A stretch of DNA of 64,000 nucleotides, from contig OZ076409.1 in NCBI GenBank assembly GCA_964187785.1, positions 71,116,001 through 71,180,000 on the forward strand. The letters run 5' to 3'. A program made the translations under genes and the position numbers. Below the pieces are notes generated by a model. It searched no databases, was not told the DNA's origin, and was given only the letters and a program-made list of their open reading frames with translations. Positions 402 through 64,000 of this stretch are shown one piece after another (the stretch's first letter is position 1; each line of letters begins with the position of its first letter). The DNA is from Amphiscolops sp. MND2022 (Eukaryota).

Positions 402-498
402 CATCAACGCCCACCGTCTGTGGGCATGCCGAGGCATGCCCTTCGACGACGTATGACAAATCCATATCAAACGACGCCCGTACATCCCGGGCTAGGTG
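402..498 (+). other. Representative unit terminus: conserved core with hairpin GGGCATGCC-GA-GGCATGCCC (422-441), variable tail (455-491) and CTAGGTG junction; putative recombination or termination site
   Basis: The same architecture closes all 31 junction-bearing units. The functional role is inferred. Confidence 0.8.
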
Positions 499-3966: not shown

Positions 3967-5940
3967 CGGGGGGGAAACCCCATCCCTTATCTTGGAGGAT
4001 TCGGGTAGGGTCCTGAATCCGAGTTCAGTGCCGCCAGCTCTCAGTAGAAATCTGGGAAATTTTTTGCGATCTCGTGATCTAACCATAGGATTTTAAAGTT
4101 GGAGCGGCCCCCACCAGATTTTCCAAAGTTATTCGCCCCCCACCGGGTTCCAGCGTGATTGAAATATTCTGACGGGGTACACGGGCGACCGTTAGGGGTC
4201 ATTTTGGGGGTAAAATTTATATCCGGTCGCATAATTTTTTTCCTGTTGGTTTAAAACTTTGGGACCCTGCTAAAAGTTTCTTGACCGTGTTGCGGGGGCT
4301 CCGGAGGTCCAAACCAAATTTTTCTATCTTGAAGCTATCTCCAAGTACCCCCCCGCCCAAACCGTTATTTTTCCGGAAACGCAGGTTTTTGACCCGGAAG
4401 GAGTCGTCTGAGCGCGGGGTCGTTAGGTGATGTATTGGGGACGGCCTTGAGACGAAGCGGGGGATATATAGTTTGCCGACCCCAGTTTACCCCCCGGACG
4501 GGAAATGACCGTTATATGAGCGGGAAAAATGCCCCCCTCCACGTTTTACCGCTATTTCCGGTGTGAAGGAGTGGGAGTAGCGCGTCGGGTGTTATATAAC
4601 AAAAGTAGGTTTAGACAAGGACCTATCGGAAACATGTAGTTTGGGACCCCCTGGACCAACCCGTTAGCGGGAAATGGGGCTTCCGCCTCCTTTTTTTACT
4701 GCTAAAACCGTAAAATGGGCATTGAGGGGTAAATATCTCGTGAACGCGTGGAGCAATCGTGTCCATCACTACTACAAGGTTTCATACCCATGATATGGTG
4801 CCTTCAGGGGGGCAAACAGATTTCCGCTATCTATCACCGTTACCGACTTGGCCCCCCAGCCTAACCGCTATGTGACCGGAAATGTCCATTTTTGAGCCCA
4901 AAGGGTCGGTCCCAGCCGGGGAACGTTAGGTAACTTATTGTAGTACTCAATGAGACGAGTTTGGGGATATAGTTTCAGTCACCCCCCGTTACCCCTTGGG
5001 ACCGGAAATGACCGTTATGTGGGTAAAATTACGATTTTTGTACTTTTTGAAGGGCAATTAGGTGCGGAAGGAGTGGTAATAGGTGCTTGTACACTATATG
5101 AGGTAAGGGAGGACGTGAGGCGAGCATTCGGAAATAACCGTTATGTTGACCCTAAAGTCCCCCTGGTACCGGAAGTGACCGGAAATGGTCAAATTTTGTG
5201 TCTATTGAGTACAAATGTTTGGTGTTTTATGAATAAAAGTACCTATTAGGTGTTTCGACGGTCTGCAGTAGTGAACATAGTCATGAAACCTTACGGGGGG
5301 TAACGGTATATAGCACCGGAAGTCCAAACCGTTGGAGACAGGATAGGTTTTTTGGTTTTAAAATGTCTTTCGGCGTACTTTTGTTGACTATTATGGACTA
5401 TTTTTAAAAATTAAAGTTTTTCCATATAGTTTCAGAGACTCCGAAACCTCAACCAACATAACCGTTACCTTATGATAGCCTTTCAAGTTGGCCTGGTGTC
5501 AACTTGGAAGGGCTATTCTTCAAAAATCATTAATCAAGTGTGTTTTTGAGTATGTTTGTATTACTTTAGAATCAATTAGAGCTTCAAGAAAAGTTTGCCA
5601 ACGATAAAAACTATGTCGTGATGATTCCGTTATTAGAATAATAGTTAACAAAATATTGATAAAGTTGATTTTTTACATTTTAAATGTGTCCTAAAAGCCA
5701 GAAAACCTCTTTAACAAACAAATGGTATTGATTGAATAGTATATATCAGGTAATAAAAGTTCAAATTGGTTTTTACGTTTCATTATGCAAGCTGAAACGT
5801 CATATTATAGTTTCATTAACGTCAACGCCACATACTTTACATCAACGCCCACCGTCTGTGGGCATGCCGAGGCATGCCCTTCGACGACGTATACCAAATT
5901 CCTCCAACACAACACCCCCGAGCGCGGTAGCAGCTAGGTG
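3967..5940 (+). repeat. Class A unit (1974 bp)
   Basis: Starts CGGGGGGGAAACCCC after GGTG; aligns by eye with all other A units. Confidence 0.95.
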
Positions 5941-7217: not shown

Positions 7218-9192
7218 CGGGGGGGTAACCCCTACAAAGATATTGGAGGATTCGGGTAGGGTCCTGAATCCGAGTTCAGTGCTGCCAGCTATCGTTAAGG
7301 GATTTTAGAAAATTTTGCCGATCTCGTGATCTAACCGTAGGATTTTAAAGTTGGAGCGGCCCCCACCAGATTTTCCAAAGTTATTCGCCCCCCACCGGGT
7401 TCCAGCGTGATTGAAATATTTTGACGGGGTACACGGGCGACCGTTAGGGGTCATTTTGGGGGTAAAATTTATATCCGGTCGCATAACTTTTTTCCTGTTG
7501 GTTTAAAACTTTGGGACCCTGCTAAAAGTTTCTTGACCGTGTTGCAGTGGCTCCGGATGTCCAAACCAAATTTTTCTATCTTGAAGCTATCTCCAAGTAC
7601 CCCCCCGCCCAAACCGTTATTTTTCCGGAAACGCAGGTTTTTGACCCGGAAGGAGTCGTCTGAGCGCGGGGTCGTTAGGTGATGTATTGGGGACGGCCTT
7701 GAGACGAAGCGGGGGACATGTAGTTTGCCGACCCCAGTTTAACCCCCGGACGGGAAATGACCGTTATTTGAGCGGGAAAAATGCCCCCCTCCACGTTTTA
7801 CCGCTATTTCCGGTGTGAAGGAGTGGGAGTAGCGCGTCGGGTGCCATATATCAAAAGTAGGTTTAGACAAGGACCTGTCGGAAACATGTGGTTTGGGACC
7901 CCCTGGTCCAACCCGTTAGCAGGAAATGGGGCTTCCGCCTCCTTTTTTTACTGCTAAAACCGTAAAATGGACATTGAGGGGTAAATATCTCGTGAACGCG
8001 TGGAGCTACAGTGTCCATCACTACTACAAGGTTTCATACCCATGATATGGTGCCTTCAGGGGGGCAAACAGATTTCCGCTATCTATCACCGTTACCAACT
8101 TGGCCCCCCAGCCTAACCGCTATGTGACCGGAAATGTCATTTTTTGAGCCCAAAGGGTCGGTCCCACCCGGGGAACGTTAGGTAACTTATTGTAGTACTC
8201 AATGAGACGAGTTGGGGGACATAGTTTCAGTCACCCTCCGTTACCCCTTGGGACCGGAAATGACCGTTATGTGGGTAAATTTGCAAGTTTTATACTTTTT
8301 CAAGTGTATTTAGGTGCGGAAGGAGTGGTAATAGGTGCTTGGACACTATATGAAGGAAGGGAGGACGTGAGGCGAGCTTTCGAAAATAACCGTTATGTTG
8401 ACCCCGAAGTCCCCCTGGTACCGGAAGTGACCCGTAATGGTCAAATGTCGTGTTTTTAGGGTACAAATGTTTGGTGTTTTATGGATAACAGTGCCTATTA
8501 GGTGTTTCGACGGTCTGCAGTCGTGAACATAGTCATGAAACCTTGTGGGGGGTAACGGTATATAGCACCGGAAGTCCAAACCGTTGGAGACTGGATAAGT
8601 TTTTTGGTTTTAAAATGTCTTTCGGCCTACTTTTGTCGACTATTGTGGACTATTTTTCGAAAATAAAGTTTTTCCATATAGTTTCAGAGACTCCGAAACC
8701 TCAACCAACATAACCGTTACTTTATGATAGCCTTTCAAGTTGGCCTGGTGTCAACTTGGAAGGGCTATCCTTCAAAAATCATTAATCCAGTGTGTTTTTG
8801 AGTATGCTTGTTTTACTTTAGAATCAATTAGAGCTTCAAGAAAAGATTGCCAACGACAAAAACTATGTCGTGATGATTCCGTTATTAGAATAATAGTTGC
8901 CAAAATGTTGATAAAGTTGATTTTTTACATTTCAAATATGTCCTAAATGCCAGAAAACCTCTTTACCAAACAAATGGTATTGACTGAATTGTATATAGCA
9001 GCTAATAAAAGTTCAAATTGAATATTACGTTTCATTATGCAAGCTGAAATGTCATATTATAGTTTAATTACCGTCAACGCCACATACTTTACATCAACGC
9101 CCACCGTCTGTAGGCATGCCGAGGCATGCCTTTCGACGACGTATACCAGATTCCACCCACACAACACCCCCGAGCGCGGTAGCAGCTAGGTG
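7218..9192 (+). repeat. Class A unit (1975 bp)
   Basis: A-type body; the core carries the AGG...CCT hairpin variant at 9112-9131. Confidence 0.95.
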
Positions 9193-31000: not shown

Positions 31001-32859
31001 TCTAACCATAGGATTTTAAAGTTGGAGCGGCCCCCACCAGATTTTCCAAAGTTATTCGCCCCCCACCGGGTTCCAGCGTGATTGAAATATTTTGACGGGG
31101 TACACGGGCGACCGTTAGGGGTCATTTTGGGGGTAAAATTTATATCCGGTCGCATAACTTTTTTCCTGTTGGTTTAAAACTTTGGGACCCTGCTAAAAGT
31201 TTCTTGACCGTGTTGCAGTGGCTCCGGAGGTCCAAACCAAATTTTTCTATCTTGAAGCTATCTCCAAGTACCCCCCCGCCCAAACCGTTATTTTTCCGGA
31301 AACGCAGGTTTTTGACCCGGAAGGAGTCGTCTGAGCGCGGGGTCGTTAGGTGATGTATTGGGGACGGCCTTGAGACGAAGCGGGGGACATGTAGTTTGCC
31401 GACCCCTGTTTACCCCCCGGACGGGAAATGACCGTTATTTGAGCGGGAAAAATGCCCCCCTCCACGTTTTACCGCTATTTCCGGTGTGAAGGAGTAGGCG
31501 TAGCGCGTCGGGTGTTATATAACAAAAGTAGGTTTAGACAAGGACCTATCGGAAACATGTAGTTTGGGACCCCCTGGACCAACCCGTTAGCGGGAAATGG
31601 GGCTTCCGCCTCCTTTTTTTACTGCTAAAACCGTAAAATGGGCATTGAGGTGTAAATATCTCGTGAACGCGTGGAGCTACGGTGTCCATCACTACTACAA
31701 GGTTTCATACCCATGATATGGTGCCTTCAGGGGGGCAAACAGATTTCCGCTATCTATCACCGTTACCGACTTGGCCCCCCAGCCTAACCGCTATGTGACC
31801 GGAATTGTCACTTTTTGAGCCCAAAGGGTCGGTCCCAGCCGGGGAACGTTAGGTAACTTATTGTAGTACTCAATGAGACGAGTTGGGGGATATAGTTTCA
31901 GTCACCCCCCGTTACCCCTTGGGACCGGAAATGACCGTTATGTGGGTAAAATTGCAATTTTTATACTTTTAAGTGTATTTAGGTGCGGAAGGAGTGGTAA
32001 TAGGTGCTTGGACACTATATGAGGTAAGGGAGGACGTGAGGCGAGCATTCGGAAATAACCGTTATATTGACCCTAAAGTCCCCCTGGTACCGTAAACGAC
32101 CGGAAATGGTCAAATTTTGTGTCTATTGGGTACAAATGTTTAGTATTTTGTAGATAAAAGTATCTATTAGGTGTTTCGACGGTCTGCAATAGTGAACATA
32201 GTCATGAAACCTTGTGGGGGGTAACGGGGTATATAGCACCGGAAGTCCAAACCGTTGGACACAGGATAGGTTTTTGGTTTGAAAATGTCTTTCGGCGTAC
32301 TTTTGTCGACTATTATGGACTATTATTAAAAATTAAAGTTTTTCCATATAGTTTCAGAGACTCCGAAACCTCAACCAACATAACCGTTACATTTTGATAG
32401 CCTTTCAAGTTGGCCTGGTGTCAACTTGGAAGCGCTATCCTTCTGAAATCGTTAATCAAGAGTGTTTTTGGGTAGGTATATATTGCATTAGTACCAATTA
32501 GAGCTTCATCAATAGTGTATCAACGACAAAAACTATGCCGTCATGATTCCGTTATTAGAATCATAGTGAGCAAATTGTTGAAAAAAATGGTTTTTTCCAT
32601 ACAAAATGTGTCCTAAATGCCAGGAAACCTATTTACCTAACAAATGGTATTAATTGGAATGTATGTAACAGATTTATAAAAGTTCAAATTGAATATTACA
32701 TTTCATTATGGAAGCTGAAACGTCATATTTTAGTTTAATTAACGTCAACGCCACACACTTTACATCAACGCACACCGTCTGTGGGCATGCCGAGGCATGC
32801 CCTTCGACGACGTATGACAAATCCATATCAAACGACGCCCGTACATCCCGGGCTAGGTG
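13039..32859 (+). repeat. Run of 10 class A units, mostly alternating short (~1972 bp) and long (~1993 bp) subtypes
   Basis: Unit lengths from the junctions: 1971, 1994, 1971, 1992, 1973, 1994, 1972, 1993, 1990, 1971. Confidence 0.95.
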
Positions 32860-35800
32860 GTCAGTGCTGTTGCGTTCATTTTTTTCCGGCCGTGGGGGAG
32901 GGCCCCTCTGAGGCCGGTCATTTTTCAGGTAACAGCTTTCTTATACAAAAAAGCGGGAAAAAACCTCAGTGCTCAAATCCCAACCGTCAGAATGAGCTGA
33001 AATTTGACATGTAGCTAGTGCATTGCAAATGATTAGGATGGGTTATAACGCTATGTTTGGCAAAATTGGTTTTGTTGCGTTTTTTTGTCATATAGGGCTA
33101 AAAATGGCCTTTTTTGCGTATTTTTTGCTTGACAAGCTAATAACTCGCGTTGGGTTGATACTAGCGATACAGGTGTGGGGTATGGAATTGTAAGATTACC
33201 AAGTACCTTGCTGATGACGTTATTTGATTTCCGCTCACATCACCCCACACGCCGGAAATGCCCAATTTGTCACTTCCGGTCGCAATTTTTGACTTTTTTG
33301 GATGGAGTCAAAGCCCATTTCCGATGTGAAGGAGTGGGTTGAGCGCTCTGACCACGATATACTAAAAGTAGGTTTAGACAAAGTCCTTTCAAGAAAAAAG
33401 TAATGTGAGCCCGCACCTATCACCCCCTCACCGGAAATAGGGGTCACGCCTCCTTTTTCTGTGTTGCAAAAGTGACATGTGCACATTTGTCCAACTCCGA
33501 AGCCCCGGAGCACCGTGGGACCCTTATACTTTCTAAACACCAATCCCACACGCTACCGGAAGTGACCGGAAGTTTCACCGGAAATGACATCCTTGGACCG
33601 GAAATGGTCAAAAAATGACTTTTCAATGCAAAATAGACACATTTGGTGCGATTTTTAGGCAAAAAGCATAGTTCGTGAAACGCTTGTTGCAGTTGGAAGG
33701 GCCATTGTTCAGCAAGAATGCGTACAGCATTACGTAGCACATCAAGTAGTTGATACTTTTTCGTCCATAATATCCTTAGGACCGGAAATGGCCATTTTTG
33801 AATCGGAAACTTCTTCAGCTTGATTTTTAACAGGTTTTTCCGCAATATTAGCGTAGGAATTGCTCGTCGGATGCTGTAGGTCTATTTTAAAACTAGCTAA
33901 CTGCTTCTTAGAAATGTATTTCAGAAGTCCCAACCAATTCCAGAATACCGGAAATAAGAGTAATTGCCTCCTTTATGACCTTTGAATAATAAATTGTTAA
34001 AATCCGCAAATTATTTCATTCCACAACTGTTGCTCAGGTTATATCTAAGCAATAACATGTGCTTGTCATGAAGTGCTGTAATGTGGGAGTTACGAATATT
34101 GCTATTTAAGAGTATTACATACGTGAATATCCGCCGTAATAAAGATTTTTAAAACAACCACTTTTGAAGTCCTATAGATTGTCCGCACACCCGAAACAAT
34201 TCAAGTTTCTAGTTTCGATTTTAAGGCTTCCGCGACTATTTAGTTGAGATGATAGTTTTCACGTTCTCTGCAAAACGTGCATTTCATTGTGTTTTTGACA
34301 TTTATTGGGCTGTTTCACATTGTAATTCAAAACTAATTGATCATACAATTTGGAACAATTGAAAATTTTCAATTGAACATTAAATGTTTTAATAGTTTCT
34401 CTTTCGTTGAAGATACTATTTTGTGGCCATTAGAACAGGTTGAATTAGTTGAATAAGTAGCCAGTGCGATACATCGTTTAATACATAGCGTTTGACATCG
34501 GTTTTTTTGCGAACAAAGACAAGCATGATTTGTTGGAAGTTTTTACCATATCGCTTCAAATCGATCGTGACAAACAATGAATTTCTCGTTTTAATTGCTA
34601 CTTCGAAAGCAGCCTGAAAACGCAAATCGATCTATTGAGTTATGGAGATGCAACTAAGCATTTCAAGTCTGGGTTTCAATTTAATTCTATCACTCCGGAC
34701 TATTTTTATGTCGCAAAAGTGATAAAGGGTGTTAGCAAGGTTAAAAACATCGAACAATTTTAAAAATAATGCCTCCGGAAAGGGAAGAAAAATGAGTTTT
34801 CCTGTCAAAACAATGATAACCACGTACGAAACATCAAGTATTTGTATTGTTCAATAGTCCAAAACATGAATGAAGTTTTTAAATATCCAAGAGTTTCTAA
34901 TCAAGCATGCGTTTCAAATGTCTGACAGGGCAGCATCGTTCTCAAAAAACATTGCTTTCAATGTGGTTTGATACCAGCAAAACGAACGTAGGCACAACCA
35001 GATTCTCAAATTTCTTGCAAAACAGCCGATTTCTTTGAAAATCCTAATTGATTTCACAGGGTATATGGTGAAACCCTGTTGGATTCCAAAAATGAAAAGC
35101 TGATTTCTTGGGTTTGCGAGATAAAAGACAACGGGAATCTGAAAGCAAGTCATCTCAATAAAATACCTGTTGCTCTTTAAACAAATGGACTTTAGTAGTC
35201 GAAATTTTTTCTCAGACACTTTCGATCAGAGAATGTTTGAGTCCTAACGTTCGAATCAGGTTGGTTTCAGGTGGCTCGAAGTGCCAGCTGAACCAACCTT
35301 TCAAATAAAGAAAAACCCCACATCTCCCTTCATGCCACGCTACCCCGTATAGCGTTTCAACTTGACAGAAGTTGGAACGTTTGATTTTGGCGTCGCTTGG
35401 GATTGACACACCAGTGTTGATACTAAATTTGGCAAAGAGAAATCGCAGAAATGATTGTTTCTTTTTTTCCCTTTGATTTAGTCTGTCGAGCGTACAAAGC
35501 AGTTTGGGAAACTAACTTGCATTTCCACTGAACGAAAAAAAGTAGTAGCCTTGCAAACTCCTGGAAGAAATTGAATCAGGTTTTCCTATTTGTGAGATCA
35601 GCTGTCACTCAATTATCAATTACTTTTTTAAAAATTTTTAGGAACAACTAACCTAACTCTGCTCGACTCTCTTGAATAATGCAACAATCGTTTACTGATC
35701 TGTACTCGTGAGAAAAAAATCAACTGCAGGTCCAAAAACAATCTATATATCTTTGGTTTATTCCGTGCAAAGCTTTTTTTCACACCATGTGACTCAACTA

Positions 35801-38800
35801 TAACATGTATGTAATGAAACCAATAACACCTTCAACTATCAACGCCCACCGTCCGTAGGCATGCCGAGGCATGCCTTTCGACGACGCGCGCCGGAAACAA
35901 TCTAACGGCGCCACCCGCTTCTGGGTGGTCAGTGCTGTTGCGTTCATTTTTTTCCGGCCGTGGGGGAGGGCCCCTCTGAGGCCGGTCATTTTTCAGGTAA
36001 CAGCTTTCTTATACAAAAAAGCGGGAAAAAACCTCAGTGCTCAAATCCCAACCGTCAGAATGAGCTGAAATTTGGCATGTAGCTAGTGCATTGCAAATGA
36101 TTAGGATGGGTTATAACGCTATGTTTGGCAAAATTGGTTTTGTTGCATTTTTTTTGTCATATAGGGCCAAAAATGGCCTTTTTTGCGTAATTTTTGCTTG
36201 ACTAGCTAATAACTCGCGTTGGGTTGGTACTAGCGATACGGGTGTGGGGTATGGAATTGTAAGAATACCAAGTACCTTGCTGATCACGTTATTTGATTTC
36301 CGCCCACATCACCCCCCACGCCGGAATGCCCAATTTGTCACTTCCGGTCGCAATTTTTGACTTTTTTGGATGGAGTTAAAACCCATTTCCGGTGTGAATG
36401 AGTGGGTTGAGCGCTCTGACCACGATATACTAAAAGTAGGTTTAGACAAAGTCCTATTAGGAAAAAAGTAATGTAAGCCCGTACCTATCACCCCCTCACC
36501 GGAAATAGGGGTCACGCCTCCTTTTTCTGTGTTGCAAAAGTGACATGTGCACATTTGTCCAACTCCGAAGCCCCGGAGCACCGTGGGACATTTATACTTT
36601 CTAAACACCTATCCCACACGCTACCGGAAGTGACCGGAAGTTTCACCGGAAATGACATCCTTGGACCGGAAATGCTCAAAAAATGACTTTTCAATGCAAA
36701 ATAGACACATTTGGTGCGATTTTTAGGCAAAAAGCATAGTTCGTGAAACGCTTGTTGCAGTTGGAAGGGCCATTGTTCAGCAAGAATGCGTACAGCATTA
36801 CGTAGCACATCAAGTAGTTGATACTTTTTCGTCCATAATATCCTTAGGACCGGAAATGGCCATTTTTGAATCGGAAACTTCTTCAGCTTGATTTTTAACA
36901 GGTTTTTCCGCAATATTAGCGTAGGAATTGCTCGTCGGATGCTGTAGGTCTATTTTAAAACTAGCTAACTGCTTCTTAGAAATGTATTTCAGAAGTCCCA
37001 ACCAATTCCAGAATACCGGAAATAAGAGTAATTGCCTCCTTTATGACCTTTGAATAATAAATTGTTAAAATCCGCATATTATTTTTTTCCACACTTGTTG
37101 CTGAGATTATATCTAAGCATTAACATGTGCTTGTCATGAAGTGCTGTAATGTGGGAGTTACGAATATTGCTATTTAAGAGTATTACATACGTGAATATCC
37201 GCCGTAATAAAGATTTTTTAAAACAACCACTTTTGAAGTCCTATAGATTGTCCGCACACCCGAAACAATTCAAGTTTCTAGTTTCGATTTTAAGGCTTCC
37301 GCGACTATTTAGTTGAGATGATAGTTTTCACGTTCTCTGCAAAACGTGCATTTCATTGTGTTTTTGACATTTATTGGGCTGTTTCACATTGTAATTCAAA
37401 ACTAATTGATCATACAATTTGGAACAATTGAAAATTTTCAATTGAACATTAAATGTTTTAATAGTTTCTCTTTCGTTGAAGATACTATTTTGTGGCCATT
37501 AGAACAGGTTGAATTAGTTGAATAAGTAGCCAGTGCGATACATCGTTTAATACATAGCGTTTGACATCGGTTTTTTTGCGAACAAAGACAAGCATGATTT
37601 GTTGAAAGTTTTTACCATATCGCTTCAAATCGGGTGTGACAAACAAGGAATTTCTCGTTTTATGTGCTACTCCGAAAGCAACCTGAAAACGCAAATCGAT
37701 CTATTGAATTATCGAGATGAAACTAAGCATTTCAAGTCTGGATTTCAATTTAATTCTATCACTCCGGTCTATTTTTATGTCGCAAGAGTGATAAAGCGTG
37801 TTAGCAAGGTTAAACACATCGAACAATTTTAATAATAAAGCCTCCGGAAAGGGAAGAAAAAATGAGTTTTCCTGTCAAAACTATGATAACCACGTACGAA
37901 ACATCAAGTTTTTGTATTGTTCAATAGTCCAAAACGTGAATGAAGTTTTTAAATATCCAAGCGTTTCTAATCAAGCATGCGTTTCAAATGTCTGACAGGG
38001 CAGCATCGTTCTCAAAAAACATTGCTTTCAATGTGGTTTGATACCAGCAAAACGAACGTAGGCACAACCAGATTCTCAAATTTCTTGCAAAACAGCCGAT
38101 TTCTTTGAAAATCCTAATTGATTTCACAGGGTATATGGTGAAACCCTGTTGGATTCCAAAAATGAAAAGCTGATTTCTTGGGTTTGCGAGATAAAAGACA
38201 ACGGGAATCTGAAAGCAAGTCATCTCAATAAAATACCTGTTGCTCTTTAAACAAATGGACTTTAGTAGTCGAAATTTTTTCTCAGACACTTTCGATCAGA
38301 GAATGTTTGAGTCCTAACGTTCGAATCAGGTTGGTTTCAGGTGGCTCGAAGTGCCAGCTGAACCAACCTTTCAAATAAAGAAAAACCCCACATCTCCCTT
38401 CATGCCACGCTACCCCGTATAGCGTTTCAACTTGACAGAAGTTGGAACGTTTGATTTTGGCGTCGCTTGGGATTGACACACCAGTGTTGATACTAAATTT
38501 GGCAAAGAGAAATCGCAGAAATGATTGTTTCTTTTTTTTCCCTTTGATTTAGTCTGTCGAGCGTACAAAGCAGTTTGGGAAACTAAATTGCATTTCCACT
38601 GAACGAAAAAAAGTAGTAGCCTTGCAAACTCCTGGAAGAAATTGAATCAGGTTTTCCTATTTGTGAGATCAGCTGTCACTCAATTATCAATTACTTTTTT
38701 AAAAATTTTTAGGAACAACTAACCTAACTCTGCTCGACTCTCTTGAATAATGCAACAATCGTTTACTGATCTGTACTCGTGAGAAAAAAATCAACTGCAG

Positions 38801-38998
38801 GTCCAAAAACAATCTATATATCTTTGGTTTATTCCGTGCAAAGCTTTTTTTCACACCATGTGACTCAACTATAACATGTATGTAATGAAACCAATAACAC
38901 CTTCAACTATCAACGCCCACCGTCCGTAGGCATGCCGAGGCATGCCTTTCGACGACGCGCGCCGGAAACAATCTAACGGCGCCACCCGCTTCTGGGTG
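32860..38998 (+). repeat. Two tandem class F units (32860-35927, 35928-38998; ~3.07 kb) ending in CTGGGTG
   Basis: Near-identical copies with a long AT-rich distal part. Same core (AGG...CCT variant), F-specific tail CGCGCCGGAAACAATCTAACGGCGCCACCCGCTT. Confidence 0.94.
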
Positions 38999-56900: not shown

Positions 56901-58750
56901 TTTTAAAGTTGGAGCGGCCCCCACCAGATTTTCCGAAAATTAGCGCCCCCCACCGGGTTCCATACCCCGGAAAATTTTTTTCTGGCCACACGGGCGACCG
57001 TTAGGGGGTCATTTTAGGGGTAAAATTCATATTGGGCCACATAACTTTTTTTCTGTTGATTTAAAACTTTGGGACCCTGCTAAAAGTTTCTTGACCGTGT
57101 TGCAGGGGCCCCAGAGGTCCAAACCAAATTTTTCTATCTTGAAGCTATCTCCAAGTACCCCCCCGCCCAAAACGTTATTTTTCCGGAAACGCAGGTTTTA
57201 GACCCGGAAGGAGTCGTCGGAGCGCGGGGTCGTTAGGTGATGTATTGGGGACGGCCTTGAGACGAAGTGGGGGACATGCAGTTTGCCGACCTCAGTTTAC
57301 CCCCCAGACAGGAAATGACCGTTATATGAGCGGGAAAATTGCCCCCCTCCACGTTTTACCGCTATTTCCGGTGTGAAGGAGTGGGAGTAGCGCGTCGGGT
57401 GCCATATATCAAAAGTAGGTTTAAACAAGGACCTATCGGAAACATGTAGTTTGGGACCCTCTGGACCAACCCGTTAGCGGGAAATGGCGCTTCCGCTTCC
57501 TTTTTTTACTGCTAAAACCGTAAAATGGGCATTGAGGGGTAAATATCTCGTGAACGCGTGGAGCAATCGTGTCCATCACTACTACAAGGTTTCATACCCA
57601 TGATATGGTGCCTTCAGGGGGGCAAACAGATTTCCGCTATCTATCACCGTTACCGACTTGGCCCCCCAGCCTAACCGTTAAGTGACCGGAAATGTCACTT
57701 TTTGAGCCCAAAGGGTCGGTCCCAGCCGGGGAACGTTAGGTAACTTATTGTAGCACTCAATGAGACGAGTTGGGGGACATAGTTTCAGTCACCCTCCGTT
57801 ACCCCTTGTGACCGGAAATGACCGTTATGTGGGTAAAATTGCATTTTTTATACTCTTTGAAGTGCATTTATGTGCGGAAGGAGTGGTAATAGGTGCTTGG
57901 ACACTATATGAGGTAAGGGAGGACGTGAGGCGAGCATTCGGAAATAACCGTTATGTTGACCCTAAAGTCCCCCTGGTACCGGAAGTGACCCGTAATGGTC
58001 AAATTTTGTGTTCAAAGGGTACAAATGGTTGGTGTTTTATGGATAACAGTGCCTATTAGGTGTTTCGACGGTCTGCAGTCGTGAACATAGTCATGAAACC
58101 TTGTGGGGGGTAACGGTATATAGCACCGGAAGTCCAAACCTTTGGAGAAAGGATAAGTTTTTTGGTTTTAAAATGTCTTTCGGCCTACTTTTGTCGACTA
58201 TTATGGTCTATTTTTGAAAAATAAAGTTTTTCCATATAGTTTCAGAGACTCCGAAACCTCAACCAACATAACCGTTACGTTATGATAGCCTTTCAAGTTG
58301 GCCTGGTGTCAACTTGGAAGGGCTATCCTTCAAAAATCATTAATCAAGTGTGTTTTTGAGTATGTTTGTATTACTTTAGAATCAATTAGAGCTTCAAGAA
58401 AAGTTTGCCAACGACAAAAACTATGTCGTGATGATTCCGTTATTAGAATAATGGTTAAGAAAATGTTGATAAATTTGATTTTTTACATTTCAAATGTGTC
58501 CTAAATGCCAGAAAACCTCTTTACCAAACAAATGGTTTTGAGTGAATTGTATATAACAGCTAATGAAAGTTCAAATTGAATATTACGTTTCATTTTGGAA
58601 GCTGAAACGTCATATTGTAGTTTAATTAACGTCAACGCCACATACTTTACATCAACGCCCACCGTCCGTAGGCATGCCGAGGCATGCCTTTCGACGACGT
58701 ATACCAGATTCCACCCACACAACACCCCCGAGCGCGGTAGCAGCTAGGTG
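38999..58750 (+). repeat. Run of 10 class A units (1971-1995 bp), including a chimeric divergent unit at 42943-44937
   Basis: Junctions at 40969, 42942, 44937, 46909, 48885, 50859, 52832, 54803, 56775 and 58750. Confidence 0.95.
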
Positions 58751-59019
58751 CGGGGGGGGTAACCCCAACAAAATTTTTGGAGGATTCGGGTAGGGTCCTG
58801 AATCCGAGTTCAGTGCTGCCAGCTTTCGTTAAGAAAATTTGGATAGGATTCGGGATCTCGTGATCTAACCATAGGATTTTAAAGTTGGAGCGGCCCCCAC
58901 CAGATTTTCCGAAAATTAGCGCCCCCCACCGGGTTCCATACCCCGGAAAATTTTTTTCTGGCCACACGGGCGACCGTTAGGGGGTAATTTTAGGGGTAAA
59001 ATTCATATTGGGCCACATA
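58751..59019 (+). repeat. Truncated final class A unit (first ~270 bp only); right edge of the array
   Basis: Follows the A consensus up to ...TATTGGGCCACATA, then unrelated sequence begins (CATTACGATAC...). Confidence 0.9.
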
Positions 59020-59041
59020 CATTACGATACACATGCCGGTA

Positions 59042-59067
59042 CGAACTAGCAGGATCCTGCTAGTTCG
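59042..59067. other. Perfect 26-bp palindrome CGAACTAGCAGGATCCTGCTAGTTCG
   Basis: Self-reverse-complementary, ~22 bp from the array breakpoint; followed by CCAATCAGAGCGCG. Confidence 0.95.
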
Positions 59068-59171
59068 ATTTTTGTCCAATCAGAGCGCGAATATTTTTTT
59101 TGGAAGTTTTACACTTTTCTCACATTACGCGCATTGATAGGCCGTTACACTCGTTGATTTTGCTACGTACG

Positions 59172-59255
59172 TTGACTAGTTTACACCATTGGATAGTACA
59201 GTAATTGACTAGCTTACACCATATGACTAGTTTAAGCAATTTGACTAACTACACT
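59172..59255 (+). repeat. Four short imperfect direct repeats, TTGACTAG(T/C)TTACAC-like
   Basis: Copies near 59173, 59205, 59223 and 59241. Confidence 0.7.
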
Positions 59256-59834
59256 GTGCATCTCATATTTACACATAGTTCTGGCAATTACGGGTTTTTA
59301 CTGGTGAGCTACACACGCCGACTCGTAACTACACTGCTTGATTCGCCTACACAGTATCAAATCGCATAAACAGTAAATCTGACTACAGGAAGTGCTCACG
59401 ACAGGGACCAAAATTACCAAGTTCAATGAAGCAACCGCCCCTTCATTATGAGACCTACTTTCATTTGTTTGGGAAGTCTTGGATGGGGGGGGTGTTGTTG
59501 GATAAGAAACAGTATTTATCTGAGGGAGGATAAGGCACATGGTCCAAACTTCGTTTTTAGTTCAATAATTCAAGATCGGTGTTCCATAAACTACTGTTTT
59601 CGGTTTGATAAAGTTTCAACTTCGTATAGACTATTTGTTACAACTTTTCTTGATGTTGCTCACGACAGGGATCAAAACCACATATGTACGTTATCAATTT
59701 TTTATTTTGAATAATATCAATAAATATCAATTAATTTTTTATTGAATAAAAGAATAATATCATGAATTGACAATATATTGTTCAGAAATAATAAATTCGA
59801 TTGTGAGGATTACTCTTTCTTGAAGATGTTGTAA

Positions 59835-60330
59835 AAACAAACCGGGTCCGGCCCAAGTCGGCGCCATATCCAAGGCTCAAAAATAGCAAAAGGACTTCCC
59901 AGTGTCAAGTATTCTCTTCTACAGTACCCGCATGAAAAAAGGAAAAAAATCGGAAAATTTTCGATTTTTTTTGAAGAACCAAAAAAATGGACTGAGTGGC
60001 GCGCCGGGCTGATTTGGGATTTTCCAACATCCATTCTGTCGCAAAACAGCAGAAAAATTGAAGGGGGACCCTTTGGGGGAAAAATTTCCGAAAAAAGTCT
60101 CGCAGTGCCGAAAAAAATTGAAGGGGTACCCTTTGGTCTCGCCCGGTACGGTATGTTACGCGGGAAAACAGGAAAAACCTTTTTGGTTCAGTTCGCTAGG
60201 CCAAATGGTGCAATTTGGTGCAATAATATTTTGTAGAACTTTTAAGAACTACTTTGGTCAGTTCGTGGTGATAGAAAAAAAGAGCCACTATAATAGTCGC
60301 GTTTCACTTCATGAAGCACCGACTAAAAAA
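59835..60330 (-). mobile_element. Non-autonomous HINE/Helentron-like element (~500 bp)
   Basis: Subterminal inverted repeats AAGTCGGCGC (59855-59864) and GCACCGACTA (~60316-60325). One end has a stem TAGTCG...CGACTA next to an A/T run, the other a small GC hairpin. Related ends recur at 60698 and 63961. The family call is by structural analogy only. Confidence 0.6.
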
Positions 60331-60697
60331 TTGCAGCTGTTGAAAACTTAAAATTCGCTAAGCCAATGTTTTCTTCCAGAAAGCGCCTCTTGAGCGTAAA
60401 CCAGCCAGTCATAAGCGCAGCAACCAATAAGCGTTTTTTGTGGAACCTAATTCACTGCTGACAATCAATTGTCGATTTAACAGGTTCCTCGGTTGTGGGC
60501 AAAGTTATTTTGCCTCTAGTTTCTTCATCTTGACTTTTAATTTCCTGTCCAATTTTGGACGTTTTAAACATCCCGAGCTATGAGATCATTTGCTGATATA
60601 CTTATCGTGCTGGTTTCGGATACTGGATAGCCAACTCTGCATGAAAACCGGATTAAACTTGCTATCAGGTACACCGCTAGTGTGAGCAATGCTCCAG

Positions 60698-60950
60698 TTT
60701 TTTAGTCGGCGCTTTTTGAAATAAAACGCAACTATTTTAGCGGTTTTCTGTCGCTTTTTTTCCAATCCAATCGAAATGACCCAAAAAGTTCTACAATAGG
60801 CTTAAGATAAGGAAGTTCTCTCTTATGGTTTTTTATTTCGTCAAGGTGCTTGAAGTTTTCATCTCAAAATAACTCAACTTTTTCAAAATTTTTTGAGCTT
60901 GAAGGAGCCCCCTCTGGATAATTTTCGCACTGCGGGTGTTTCTGGGATTT
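60698..60950 (+). mobile_element. Degenerate fragment of the same element family, opposite orientation
   Basis: Begins TTTTTTAGTCGGCGCTTTTTGAAATAAAACGCAACTA, the reverse complement of the 60294-60330 end. AAAAGTTCTACAA and TTTTCGCACTGCG match internal blocks. The right limit is approximate. Confidence 0.55.
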
Positions 60951-61053
60951 TCCACGGTACCACGATAGAGTCTATTAAAAACTAGAGATAGAGTCTATTG
61001 AGCCTCGAGCCTTCCGAGTTGAGGAATTCCTGTTGAGGTATTCGAATATTTAG

Positions 61054-61345
61054 TCAAAGTTTCGTGTAATGACAAACTGAATATCTAGTGAAATCCGACG
61101 GAATATCGTTCAGTCCTGTTTCCGAGACCTCTGCCACATTTCCATCTCCGTCGGGATTTGGATACTTCCATAGGAGTTTACTAGCATCCACGACTTTTCC
61201 GTCGTTGTTCGTCCAGTTACCATTATCATCAATTCGTATTCCGACATGAAATCTCCTGCGCGGGTCTTCTGATAACGCAGTTGTATTTAGGAGTTTTGTA
61301 AATTCTTGCATACATTTTTTCATAAGTTCCCAATTTTCAGCTATT
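61054..61345 (-). CDS. C-type lectin-like domain, C-terminal part (probable terminal exon or gene fragment)
   Basis: Translation ...AENWELMKKC...FHVGIRIDDNGNWTNNDG...LLWKYPNPDGDGNVAEVSETGLNDIPSDFTRYSVCHY* follows the CTLD pattern (WIGL-like, W-x-W/DG, W..P.PD, LND.PC-like, final VC), but lacks two canonical Cys. There is an in-frame stop just upstream. Confidence 0.55.
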
Positions 61346-63129
61346 CTTTTTCAAAAGATTTTGAACCTGTGTGGGATCAAATGCATCTTTCTGCTCCCAA
61401 ACGTCTGGACTAGAACAAGTGAACAACCACTAGAACAAGAAAATGGCCGCCGCTCAACTCACTGTTTTCGTCTCATTGAGTTCTTTTAAAATAAAGGTTT
61501 ATCGGGCATTTATTTAATCAAAAACGCAAATTAAAAAGACCCTCGCTGACTTGTTAAGCCCAGATTTAGAGATAAGAAAGTCTATCTGTGACTGTGATCC
61601 ATCGAAGTCGTCGAAAAGTGTTGCGCCCAGTTTTTCGCAATTAGCTTTAGCTGCATTCCAGCTCTTTGCTTTTTTGATGCCTCTTCACGCAGGTTTGCAA
61701 TAGCATTAGGTGCTTGTTTAGAATATGCCTTTAAAAATCGCATTGTAATGCAAGCATTCCTAGGATTAGATTCGTTTGTGTTTATGTACAATGATGTGAT
61801 GGGTTAGAACTTGGCGTCTCATTAAGCATGTTTTCATCACTGACCTCCTAAAAGTTTTTATCTCTGAAATGCCCATCTTTGGGCGTTTTTTCAGTGTATT
61901 GGTACTAGTGGTTCGTATCTTGTTTCGAATTATCAAGCGCATGTCCATCATTAATATCTCCACAACTACACGTACCATAGAAACGAACTATAGCGCATTT
62001 GAAAGGTCTGGTACTGGGCTTTCATTTTGGTCAGGTGAGCCCCTGTCGTCGCGCGCCCTCTCTTTCAGAATTTCAGTTTCTTTTTCGGTACTGCCGCCAC
62101 GCGGCCATTCAGCAGTTCGGGGCTTGCAGTAATAACAAACAGGACATTATTGAGGTTTGTTGCACACGGACGTGTTGTGGAAGCGTATGTGGTATAATGC
62201 TTAGGCCTTTCAAATCAATCTAAGTACCAATTAATTGTTGAAAAAAAAACTGTGCTAGAGAATATGGGCTACTGGCAGAAGGAATCCGAAAGTGAAAAAT
62301 AGGTAGGCTGCTTCAAAGTACCACTAGGGTCATTAGGGTTAATGACTATCAACTTGTTTCTTGAAACCTTTCTTATTATAGGTTTTTATGAAATGCTGAA
62401 AAAGATATAAACTGCAATGGTGAACAAAAGGAGTAGCATATTCAACGATAGCCCAAGACGACACCTTTCAGTGCCAATTTCATTGCGGTCCTTAGTCATG
62501 AAAATTGAATGTTTTGAAAGACATTTGATGTTACTTTTATTCATTTTAGAGGCAAAAATAGAAAAGGTGTAATTACCCCTGTGACGGTTTGCTCTTCTGG
62601 TATTCTGATTGCTTGGATTTGTCTGTTCAAGTGAGCTTCGAAAGTGATATTTTTAACATGGAAGGGTCCAGTGATATACACTGGGAAACCACAAATATTT
62701 TATAGCTCCTTTTTTCTTAGCTCCTTCGTACCTTGATCCCTTCGACTAGAGGTATTCAATTCTTACAAGGAGCTACGTGGAGTTATTTATTAACAGTTGA
62801 AGATATCAAGTAAGCTATTGTCTAGTATAAGTAGTAGGAAGCGTTTGCTATCGTGACTTGTCATTCAGTTCATTTGTGTAACTTGCAATTTATCATTAGG
62901 TTATAATTCTTGGCCTAAAAAACTAGGCTTTGCACTACAATAGGGTAGAAAGTTTTTTTTTAATTTTTGGAAAATTTACTTGGAATGTTTCATGAATTGA
63001 CAGTTGTAGAATATTAGCGAGCGGCGAAAGACCCATGGGTCTGCTGCCATGTGTCACTTGTCTAATCAAATTCAAGTTAGAAACTTTTCCCTTCCAACGG
63101 TATGATCCCTCTTGTACTTTTGATACTTT

Positions 63130-63480
63130 TTAAACGCTTCTCAAGCACTCTTGGCTCTGAAATTTGCAACCATGCCTTATCCATTCAACTACCATCACGT
63201 CTCCAGAACCACTGCATGTTTTCCCACCGTGGAACCCCTCAAAACATTTCGGGGGCAAATGTCGTTGCCAGTAATTTAGCCTCTGAAGCTCCTCGAAAGG
63301 TTCCTCATTTATCCATTGACCGTCAACCCTCTTCCCGTTTATGCGACATAAGTTGAGAAATTCACCGTCGTCTTGTATACTTTTGGAAGTTCCTTGTTGA
63401 TTTAGCATACATTTCGTTCGATATTATCTCGATAGACTCTACCAGTCCATCTCGCCTAGTTGGGCCTCTAGAATTTTCTG
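63130..63480 (-). pseudogene. Possible degenerate C-type lectin-like fragment
   Basis: CRINGKRVDGQWINEE...LNYWQ...GSGD resembles the CTLD core. Upstream KILEAQLGE lies in another frame and stop codons intervene. Confidence 0.3.
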
Positions 63481-63960
63481 ATCTCATTTTCTTGAGATGA
63501 ATTGCTTCTATTTATCAGCCACTCTGAGTCCCATAGCCTGGGCCATTTATAACAACCTCTTACTCTCTCTCTCTCTCTAGAGTTTGAAATTCCTTCTCCC
63601 AACAATATATCCATGTTACCGTAATCAGACATGTTATCCATTTCTCTAGACTTCTTTCTCTAGACCTCTAATTGAAGCCATAGAAAAGGTTAAAATGACC
63701 TGACCGACTAACAGCCCCGTTAGGCTTTTCAATGGACAAGGACAGGGGTTGGTATTGAATGTAAAATATCAGTTAAGGTATATAGTTAGGTCACTAGCTA
63801 GCACAGTCACTCCAAAGGGGCATCATTTTAATGTATAATTCCAAGTACATGTTATTTTTCATCAACAAATTATAGTAGACTAAATACCAACACCGACTAA
63901 TTGAATATTTGGACTAGACCATTCCAGCTTTTTATCTATGTAGCATCGCAACAATGAATA

Positions 63961-64000
63961 AACAAGACGGGAACGTCCAAAGTCGGCGCCATATATAAGG
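63961..64000 (-). mobile_element. End of another HINE-like copy, running out of the window
   Basis: AACAAGACGGGAACGTCCAAAGTCGGCGCCATAT resembles 59836-59869; small hairpin GACG-GGAA-CGTC next to the AAGTCGGCGC repeat. Confidence 0.55.

Follow-up and report, generated by a model that had tools for sequence, protein, structure and literature searches.

Helitrons have been described in two groups, each of which targets a dinucleotide, A^T in one and T^T in the other, and the HELIANO paper also reports unclassified Helitron clusters (PMC11417382). For Helraiser, copying is terminated by the 3′ hairpin, whose loop matters and whose stem is exchangeable; the element requires its left end, and the transposase cuts the junction of the plus-strand circle (PMC4778049, PMC5876387). 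A GIY-YIG domain has been reported once, in a Sphagnum HLE2 (PMC11417382, PMC8788227). IS91 integrates at CTTG or GTTC and leaves no duplication (PMC13181058).

The window analyzed here is a 64,000-nt stretch of Amphiscolops sp. (bases 71,116,001–71,180,000 of a 104-Mb contig; genome, 1.07 Gb). Junctions define 30 complete head-to-tail elements of six families in it (496–58747, plus strand; 1.27–3.07 kb), 21 of which are class A. These units are non-autonomous Helitron-like transposons, a context absent from an earlier note on this DNA, and their ends and target differ from those published for HLE1 and HLE2.

Element anatomy and core copies

Sorting of the sequences that follow each core revealed a sharp switch at CTAG|GTG, 38–58 nt past the stem; in the first case, it lies at 492–498 (plus strand), with the 3′ end at 495 and the next start at 496. 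Elements start with GTG[C/G], carry a 5′ hairpin about 35–60 nt in, and end with CTAG or CTGG in 218 of 219 complete elements sampled; ends were defined with a CTNG filter and confirmed without it. CT[AGT]G-GTG precedes 199 of 201 5′-hairpin matches, and the other two are internal false matches. In a class A element, the 5′ hairpin (3997–4020, plus strand) has a conserved GGGTAGGGTCCT centre and a family-specific, covarying stem. The core is assigned to the upstream element and not to the next one; it is no boundary between units, as its position is upstream of the element 3′ end.

The core itself is a nearly invariant 35-nt 3′-subterminal sequence (416–450 in the first of 31 copies, plus strand). 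Within it is a 9+2+9 inverted repeat (422–441, plus strand), both arms of which contain the palindrome GGCATGCC. All 31 exact GGCATGCC-GA-GGCATGCC cores in the window are on the plus strand. The pair at positions 422 and 441 of the first copy (plus strand) is G..C in 24 of them and A..T in seven (A at 9112, 28818, 35857, 38928, 48805, 50780, and 58670), and mixed pairs are absent (0/31). All seven places named in the earlier note were recovered, and its statement that G>A on the left always comes with C>T on the right stands, with rare exceptions genome-wide: a 34-mer core pattern gave 4,008 matches (0 for the reversed control), comprising 3,443 G..C (by subtraction), 554 A..T, 10 G..T and 1 A..C, hence 11 mixed pairs. 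A shorter, 30-mer pattern matched 4,906 times. About 0.97 Mb was sampled around listed matches, RepHel matches and spaced windows, a non-random sample that is biased in that four loci and some windows were chosen for mixed pairs; it contained 264 cores, and counts are based on the 256 that differ at no more than 8 positions. Its 219 complete short elements fall into 32 families, and the core is present in 197 of them, across 24 families; the other 22 are core-less. Solo copies outside arrays have the exact core; for two solo copies (L011, L122) the 5′ end was sought and not found. Among sequencing runs, one contained the sequence, at a small share, and none of those listed was an RNA run; contigs from this run span the core and one junction, with no variant listed at either. 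At one locus (L109, C9:3423806) the hairpin part of the core is cleanly deleted, and that element is not amplified in the sample.

Around the core, CGCCCAC (408–414, plus strand) is a loose inverted copy of the 5′-terminal GTGNNCG, and a similar motif recurs at 385–393. Among 219 5′ ends, 90 fit the loose 7-nt match GTGNNCG/CGNNCAC, as do 138 of the 197 cores, and CGCCCAC may be a transposase site. A second hairpin, variable between families and predicted by folding in some tails only, occupies 476–492 (plus strand). Within the element at 496–2690, a degenerate internal core copy (2403–2452, at 2421, plus strand) shows other decay and a further paired change, C>T with G>A, and among sampled cores this change is confined to the decaying internal-copy family. 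This element belongs to a 2.2-kb family with another 5′ end, without a GGGTAGGG-type centre, and has two cores, the decayed one lying 196 nt upstream of its intact counterpart, a layout that suggests read-through with gain of a new 3′ end.

At the end of the window, the start of a class A element (58748–59018, plus strand) is interrupted; the element (58748–64000, and locus L029) is broken about 270 nt in by an unrelated insertion of about 12.2 kb that has an internal inverted repeat of about 420 bp and lacks open frames of ≥140 aa. The window has no long open reading frame (longest, 181 aa), and Tandem Repeats Finder reported four short arrays in it, none of them relevant.

Autonomous partners, target site and arrays

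Helitron_like_N has 152 matches in the genome, of which 10 weak-scoring ones with frames above 2,300 aa were fetched; all 10 of these RepHel loci lie among the elements described here, on the same strand, and form four lineages that are about 30% identical. These autonomous partners are 12–17 kb long, sit in the same arrays, and have RepHel open frames of 2,350–2,603 aa. The window contains two class F elements (32857–38995, plus strand), the second of which matches a 14,083-bp lineage-2 RepHel element at C1:71.60 Mb at both ends (first 905 bp, 96%; last 86 bp, 98%). Lineages 2, 3, and 4 end with the core in its A..T, G..C and A..T forms, respectively, and lineage 1 ends without it (3′ end in view for five of six fetched loci). 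A tyrosine-recombinase (Crypton) origin was dropped once RepHel elements sharing both ends had been found, and so was a Replitron origin; the partner proteins have a helicase, unlike the Y1 Rep of Replitrons.

The Rep part is an HUH protein with two tyrosines, fused to a PIF1 helicase. Pfam recognized Helitron_like_N and PIF1 in three of three proteins and a C-terminal GIY-YIG in two of three scanned (one below cut-off), and matched neither DUF6570 nor AP endonuclease at E ≤ 0.01 in three own and five related RepHels. Motif 2 of the Rep reads EFQxxx[GA][NA]L[PQ]HxH, whereas the other RepHels of this genome have an RG-bearing motif, and the tree, unrooted with 27 rows and long branches, separates the group at 100/100 from seven own-genome RepHels with the canonical motif. 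An N-terminal OTU-like protease motif was seen by eye in the 2,603-aa frame of a 17-kb lineage-3 element (L043–L044, C5:22.67–22.69 Mb), and OTU is a Pfam match in database relatives. Downstream of the RepHel, ORF2 has no Pfam match; Atlas fold recognition stayed below threshold (model pLDDT 60), structure matches to RPA were obtained at E 2e-4 with a TM of about 0.23, and ORF2 is weakly predicted to be an OB-fold ssDNA-binding protein.

A Perkinsus olseni protein is 39% identical to the RepHel; many of the database matches may come from Amphiscolops itself. Relatives were also found at 20 loci on marine metagenome contigs, most of which end before the element 3′ end; in these loci neither core nor p53-like site was seen, and the 5′ hairpin was found only in L086, where the same centre on another stem precedes a 40%-identical RepHel. 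Further marine metagenome loci (L088–L101) contain distant RepHels with an EYQxxxGNLxHxH motif, some of them with a downstream ORF and a terminal hairpin. Viral contigs yielded no relative, and a phmmer comparison of the Rep region with solved structures gave no match better than E = 1.

Flanks and an empty site define where the elements insert. Apparent host left flanks end with CTDG in seven of seven cases (CTTG, CTGG or CTAG; background, 0.009 per site), and apparent host right flanks begin with GT (six) or TT (two) in eight of eight. The empty site, CTTG^GT, is present in four of five uninterrupted copies of the host LTR retrotransposon that was hit by a solo copy. This solo copy itself ends with CTTG, and a 6-bp duplication is compatible with the data there; two solo class F copies (L012, L013) have CTTG on the left and the family-type CTGG on the right, i.e., no duplication. 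The insertion target, for which one empty site was seen, is CT[A/G/T]G^[G/T]T, which is IS91-like. It equals the elements' own junction and is remade at each junction, which likely helps to stack mixed arrays.

The core was found in 14 of 14 sampled windows across 70.45–75.51 Mb and in none of six windows outside this span, so that the mixed array extends over at least 5 Mb; smaller arrays are present on other chromosomes. Plant Helitron arrays, reportedly described by Xiong in 2016, are said to be centromere-associated. Elements are arranged head-to-tail on one strand in mixed order, and 101 of 160 adjacent pairs, in 71 combinations, join different families, leaving 59 same-family pairs; in contigs, tandem junctions look identical to circles. 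At locus L015 (C1:23.97–23.98 Mb), on the edge of an array, a pair of cores on opposite strands point towards each other, a rare break in polarity. Other sequence contains the 6-bp target about every 880 nt, so the target by itself is insufficient to account for the arrays; we infer that they additionally require either preferential insertion at resident ends or amplification in place.

Origin of the A..T pair and probable function of the core

The paired changes in the core form one haplotype. A third, unpaired site is C in 57 of 58 sampled A..T cores, whereas sampled G..C cores have T in 99 and C in 91. The A..T form occurs in eight of the 24 core-bearing families, four of which also hold G..C, and mapping the A..T label onto a tree built from 41 class A bodies takes three changes (a clade of eight and two strays). 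The A..T double change therefore likely represents about one event that has spread across eight families as a haplotype of three sites; the simplest reading is a single origin with later exchange of the block between families, at or close to the core they have in common. A near-palindrome might also acquire such a double change in a single step, through template switching. The reservation in the earlier note that the seven copies may descend from one double change is thus well founded, and its use of covariation as a sign of structure falls with it, whereas its proposal of selection on the core is retained.

Real covariation sits in the 5′ hairpin, not in the core. Its 41 types share the fixed centre, and cognate arms fold at −8.4 kcal/mol compared with −6.1 kcal/mol when arms are swapped, a difference that none of 10,000 permutations equalled, with types that are not independent of one another.

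Constraint on the core is evident from diversity. With the three haplotype sites removed, core diversity in six junction-defined families is 0–0.007, compared with 0.09–0.24 for bodies and 0.09–0.37 for the adjoining tails, in agreement with the earlier claim that the core is near-invariant between classes with diverged bodies. Transition variants are equally rare genome-wide at all site classes (19 over eight stem and loop sites, 16 over four other stem sites, and 12 over five lower-stem and internal-loop sites). The 35-mer is likely read as sequence because its unpaired bases are as invariant as its paired ones, and pairing by itself is insufficient for the conservation pattern, which favours a symmetric protein-binding site together with an ssDNA hairpin. 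Among the forms of selection proposed earlier, this one is favoured over RNA structure. That the core acts as a structured RNA made by transcription of the units, either a ribozyme or a small-RNA precursor, is very improbable: the region does fold better than shuffles with DNA parameters (z = −3.7 on the plus strand and −2.9 on the minus strand; −2.6 for an A..T copy), but an Rfam search of the core region matched no family at gathering scores, the position of the core is fixed relative to the DNA nick site, the partners are HUH helicase transposases and not reverse transcriptases, and the covariation amounts to about one event.

The preferred reading is that the core, a near-invariant 3′-subterminal motif, probably serves as an end signal read by the rolling-circle machinery as sequence plus hairpin. 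By analogy with Helraiser, RepHel would bind the 5′ hairpin, nick at CTDG^GTG, and peel off the plus strand; copying would stop after the core, at the CTAG 38–58 nt downstream, and the circle would close and integrate at CTDG^KT. Each insertion would recreate the target on both sides, with resident junctions likely preferred, and arrays would grow by self-stacking at these junctions. Several findings count against the end-signal reading. The core is not universal, being absent from RepHel lineage 1 and the 22 core-less short elements; it lies 38–58 nt from the end compared with 11 nt in Helraiser, and some tails have a closer hairpin; and its stem, unlike the exchangeable one of Helraiser, is fixed across RepHels that are about 30% identical, a pattern not expected of a private transposase signal. 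Identity of the core across such transposases would need either 3′-end swapping or a shared reading factor.

A rival reading involves a host p53-family protein. On this account, what forms the 20-bp centre is a p53-family response element of the host, acting as dsDNA or a cruciform, that was captured by a 3′ end and spread across lineages since p53/p63 binding aids propagation, for instance through activation of the next element, or since the arrays serve the host; we regard it as unlikely. Positions 422–441 match two RRRCWWGYYY half-sites (PMC6888028) at 19 of 20 bases with spacer 0 (allowed, 0–13 nt), in the G..C and A..T forms alike, and random 9+2+9 hairpins match equally well at a rate of 1.5–4e-4. 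A response element would account for the self-palindromic arms, the 2-nt centre and the identity across the 30%-identical lineages. The main p53-family gene of the host, on C4, has intact-looking motifs for what we take to be its DNA-contact residues. In addition, some 19 partial matches to the p53 domain, several of them containing stops, lie in tandem at C2:2.33–2.36 Mb and C26. The match was, however, noticed after the fact, and the mutation spectrum is unsupportive, at low power: transitions at the p53-critical C/G positions (16 over four sites) are not rarer than at tolerant ones (19 over eight). Moreover, invariance is just as strong beyond the 20-mer (12 over five sites), the single non-consensus base is itself fixed (255/256), lineage-1 elements have no comparable site (four of five none, one with three mismatches), and the 10-to-1 excess of G..T over A..C genome-wide weakly fits a plus-strand hairpin instead. 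A precedent is the zebrafish EnSpm-N6_DR (PMC3485254), likewise a non-autonomous DNA transposon with a near-perfect two-half-site motif in an inverted repeat, in which p53 sites have been reported; the site in the core is by comparison a candidate known from sequence. A literature search for a Helitron with a p53 response element returned only one unrelated review.

It is also improbable, to a greater degree, that the core is now functionless, its identity being due to gene conversion and unequal exchange and the arrays to rolling-circle concatemers or recombination rather than junction targeting. Exchange of haplotypes and tails between families is evident, same-family neighbours make up 59 of 160 pairs, core-less families coexist in the arrays, and Helitron tandem arrays have been ascribed to rolling-circle amplification (PMC5876387, PMC13404089). 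Against this, conservation is confined sharply to about 35 nt next to tails with diversity of 0.09–0.37, solo copies outside arrays hold the exact core, the heterologous neighbours come in 71 different pairs, and the hairpin deletion is a single copy among 219.

Comparison with known systems

Literature searches (sources including PMC12001565, PMC6431247, PMC12910113, bioRxiv 10.64898/2026.09.17.752431) revealed no Helitron with this target, these ends or self-stacking mixed arrays; Repbase, subscription papers, supplements or the unclassified HELIANO clusters may hold one. The broadest proposal is that the elements belong to a third main group of Helitrons, characterized by RepHel-GIY-YIG and ranging from Amphiscolops to Perkinsus, which has an IS91-like target and homes into its own junctions to build multi-megabase mixed arrays, and that several lineages here share a captured p53-family response element as end signal, stacking about 4,900 p53 sites and coupling transposition to a host DNA-damage or germline factor; taken as a whole, this is doubtful. 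If a RepHel group has a six-base target equal to its own junction, this would tie Helitrons to IS91 in mechanism and offer a simple way for a transposon to become a satellite-like array of many megabases. With many intact frames of 2,350–2,600 aa and defined short ends, target choice and termination are directly testable in a Helraiser-type assay, and the 35-nt p53-like end signal common to 30%-identical transposases raises the question of whether a host factor acts in Helitron termination or activation.

By their proteins the elements fall within the Helitron superfamily as defined in PMC11417382, but their ends and target depart from those given there for HLE1 and HLE2. They resemble canonical Helitrons (HLE1; Helraiser) in a RepHel with PIF1 and two tyrosines in motif 3 (PMC11417382, PMC4778049, PMC5876387), and also in a 3′ CTRR end preceded by a hairpin, in head-to-tail junctions, apparent lack of target duplication, a probable OB-fold gene downstream of RepHel, and many non-autonomous derivatives. 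HLE1 has 5′ TC and the target A^T, whereas the present elements have GTG and CTDG^KT; they further differ in a 5′ hairpin with a fixed centre, a core 38–58 nt from the end, a longer Rep motif 2 without RG, and a C-terminal GIY-YIG in most. Arrays of HLE1 interleaved with satellites are associated with Meloidogyne centromeres (PMC13404089); here, the array consists of the elements themselves.

With HLE2 (Helentron, Helitron2, proto-Helentron, HLE2-reverse) the elements share a long RepHel, with OTU in some relatives (PMC11417382, PMC8788227), possibly a short inverted repeat just before the 3′ stem-loop, and the 5′ stem-loops of some variants. They differ from HLE2 in having no T^T target and no match to DUF6570 or AP endonuclease, and in RepHels that group apart from the RG-motif long RepHels of this genome in the unrooted tree. 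Where HLE2 has terminal inverted repeats of 12–16 nt, a loose 7-nt match was seen here in part of the elements.

Replitrons are likewise eukaryotic HUH transposons with an orientation-specific target (RG) and short terminal direct repeats (PMC10288648, PMC9977147), but their Rep is a Y1 protein that lacks a helicase, their duplications vary, and their right ends are fuzzy. IS91 is similar in HUH rolling-circle transposition, in a tetranucleotide target (CTTG, GTTC) that resembles its own cleavage site CTCG, in subterminal palindromes at both ends and in its lack of target duplication, which is also apparent here (PMC13181058); it differs in being prokaryotic, without helicase and without multi-family arrays, whereas the elements described here are eukaryotic and have RepHel partners.
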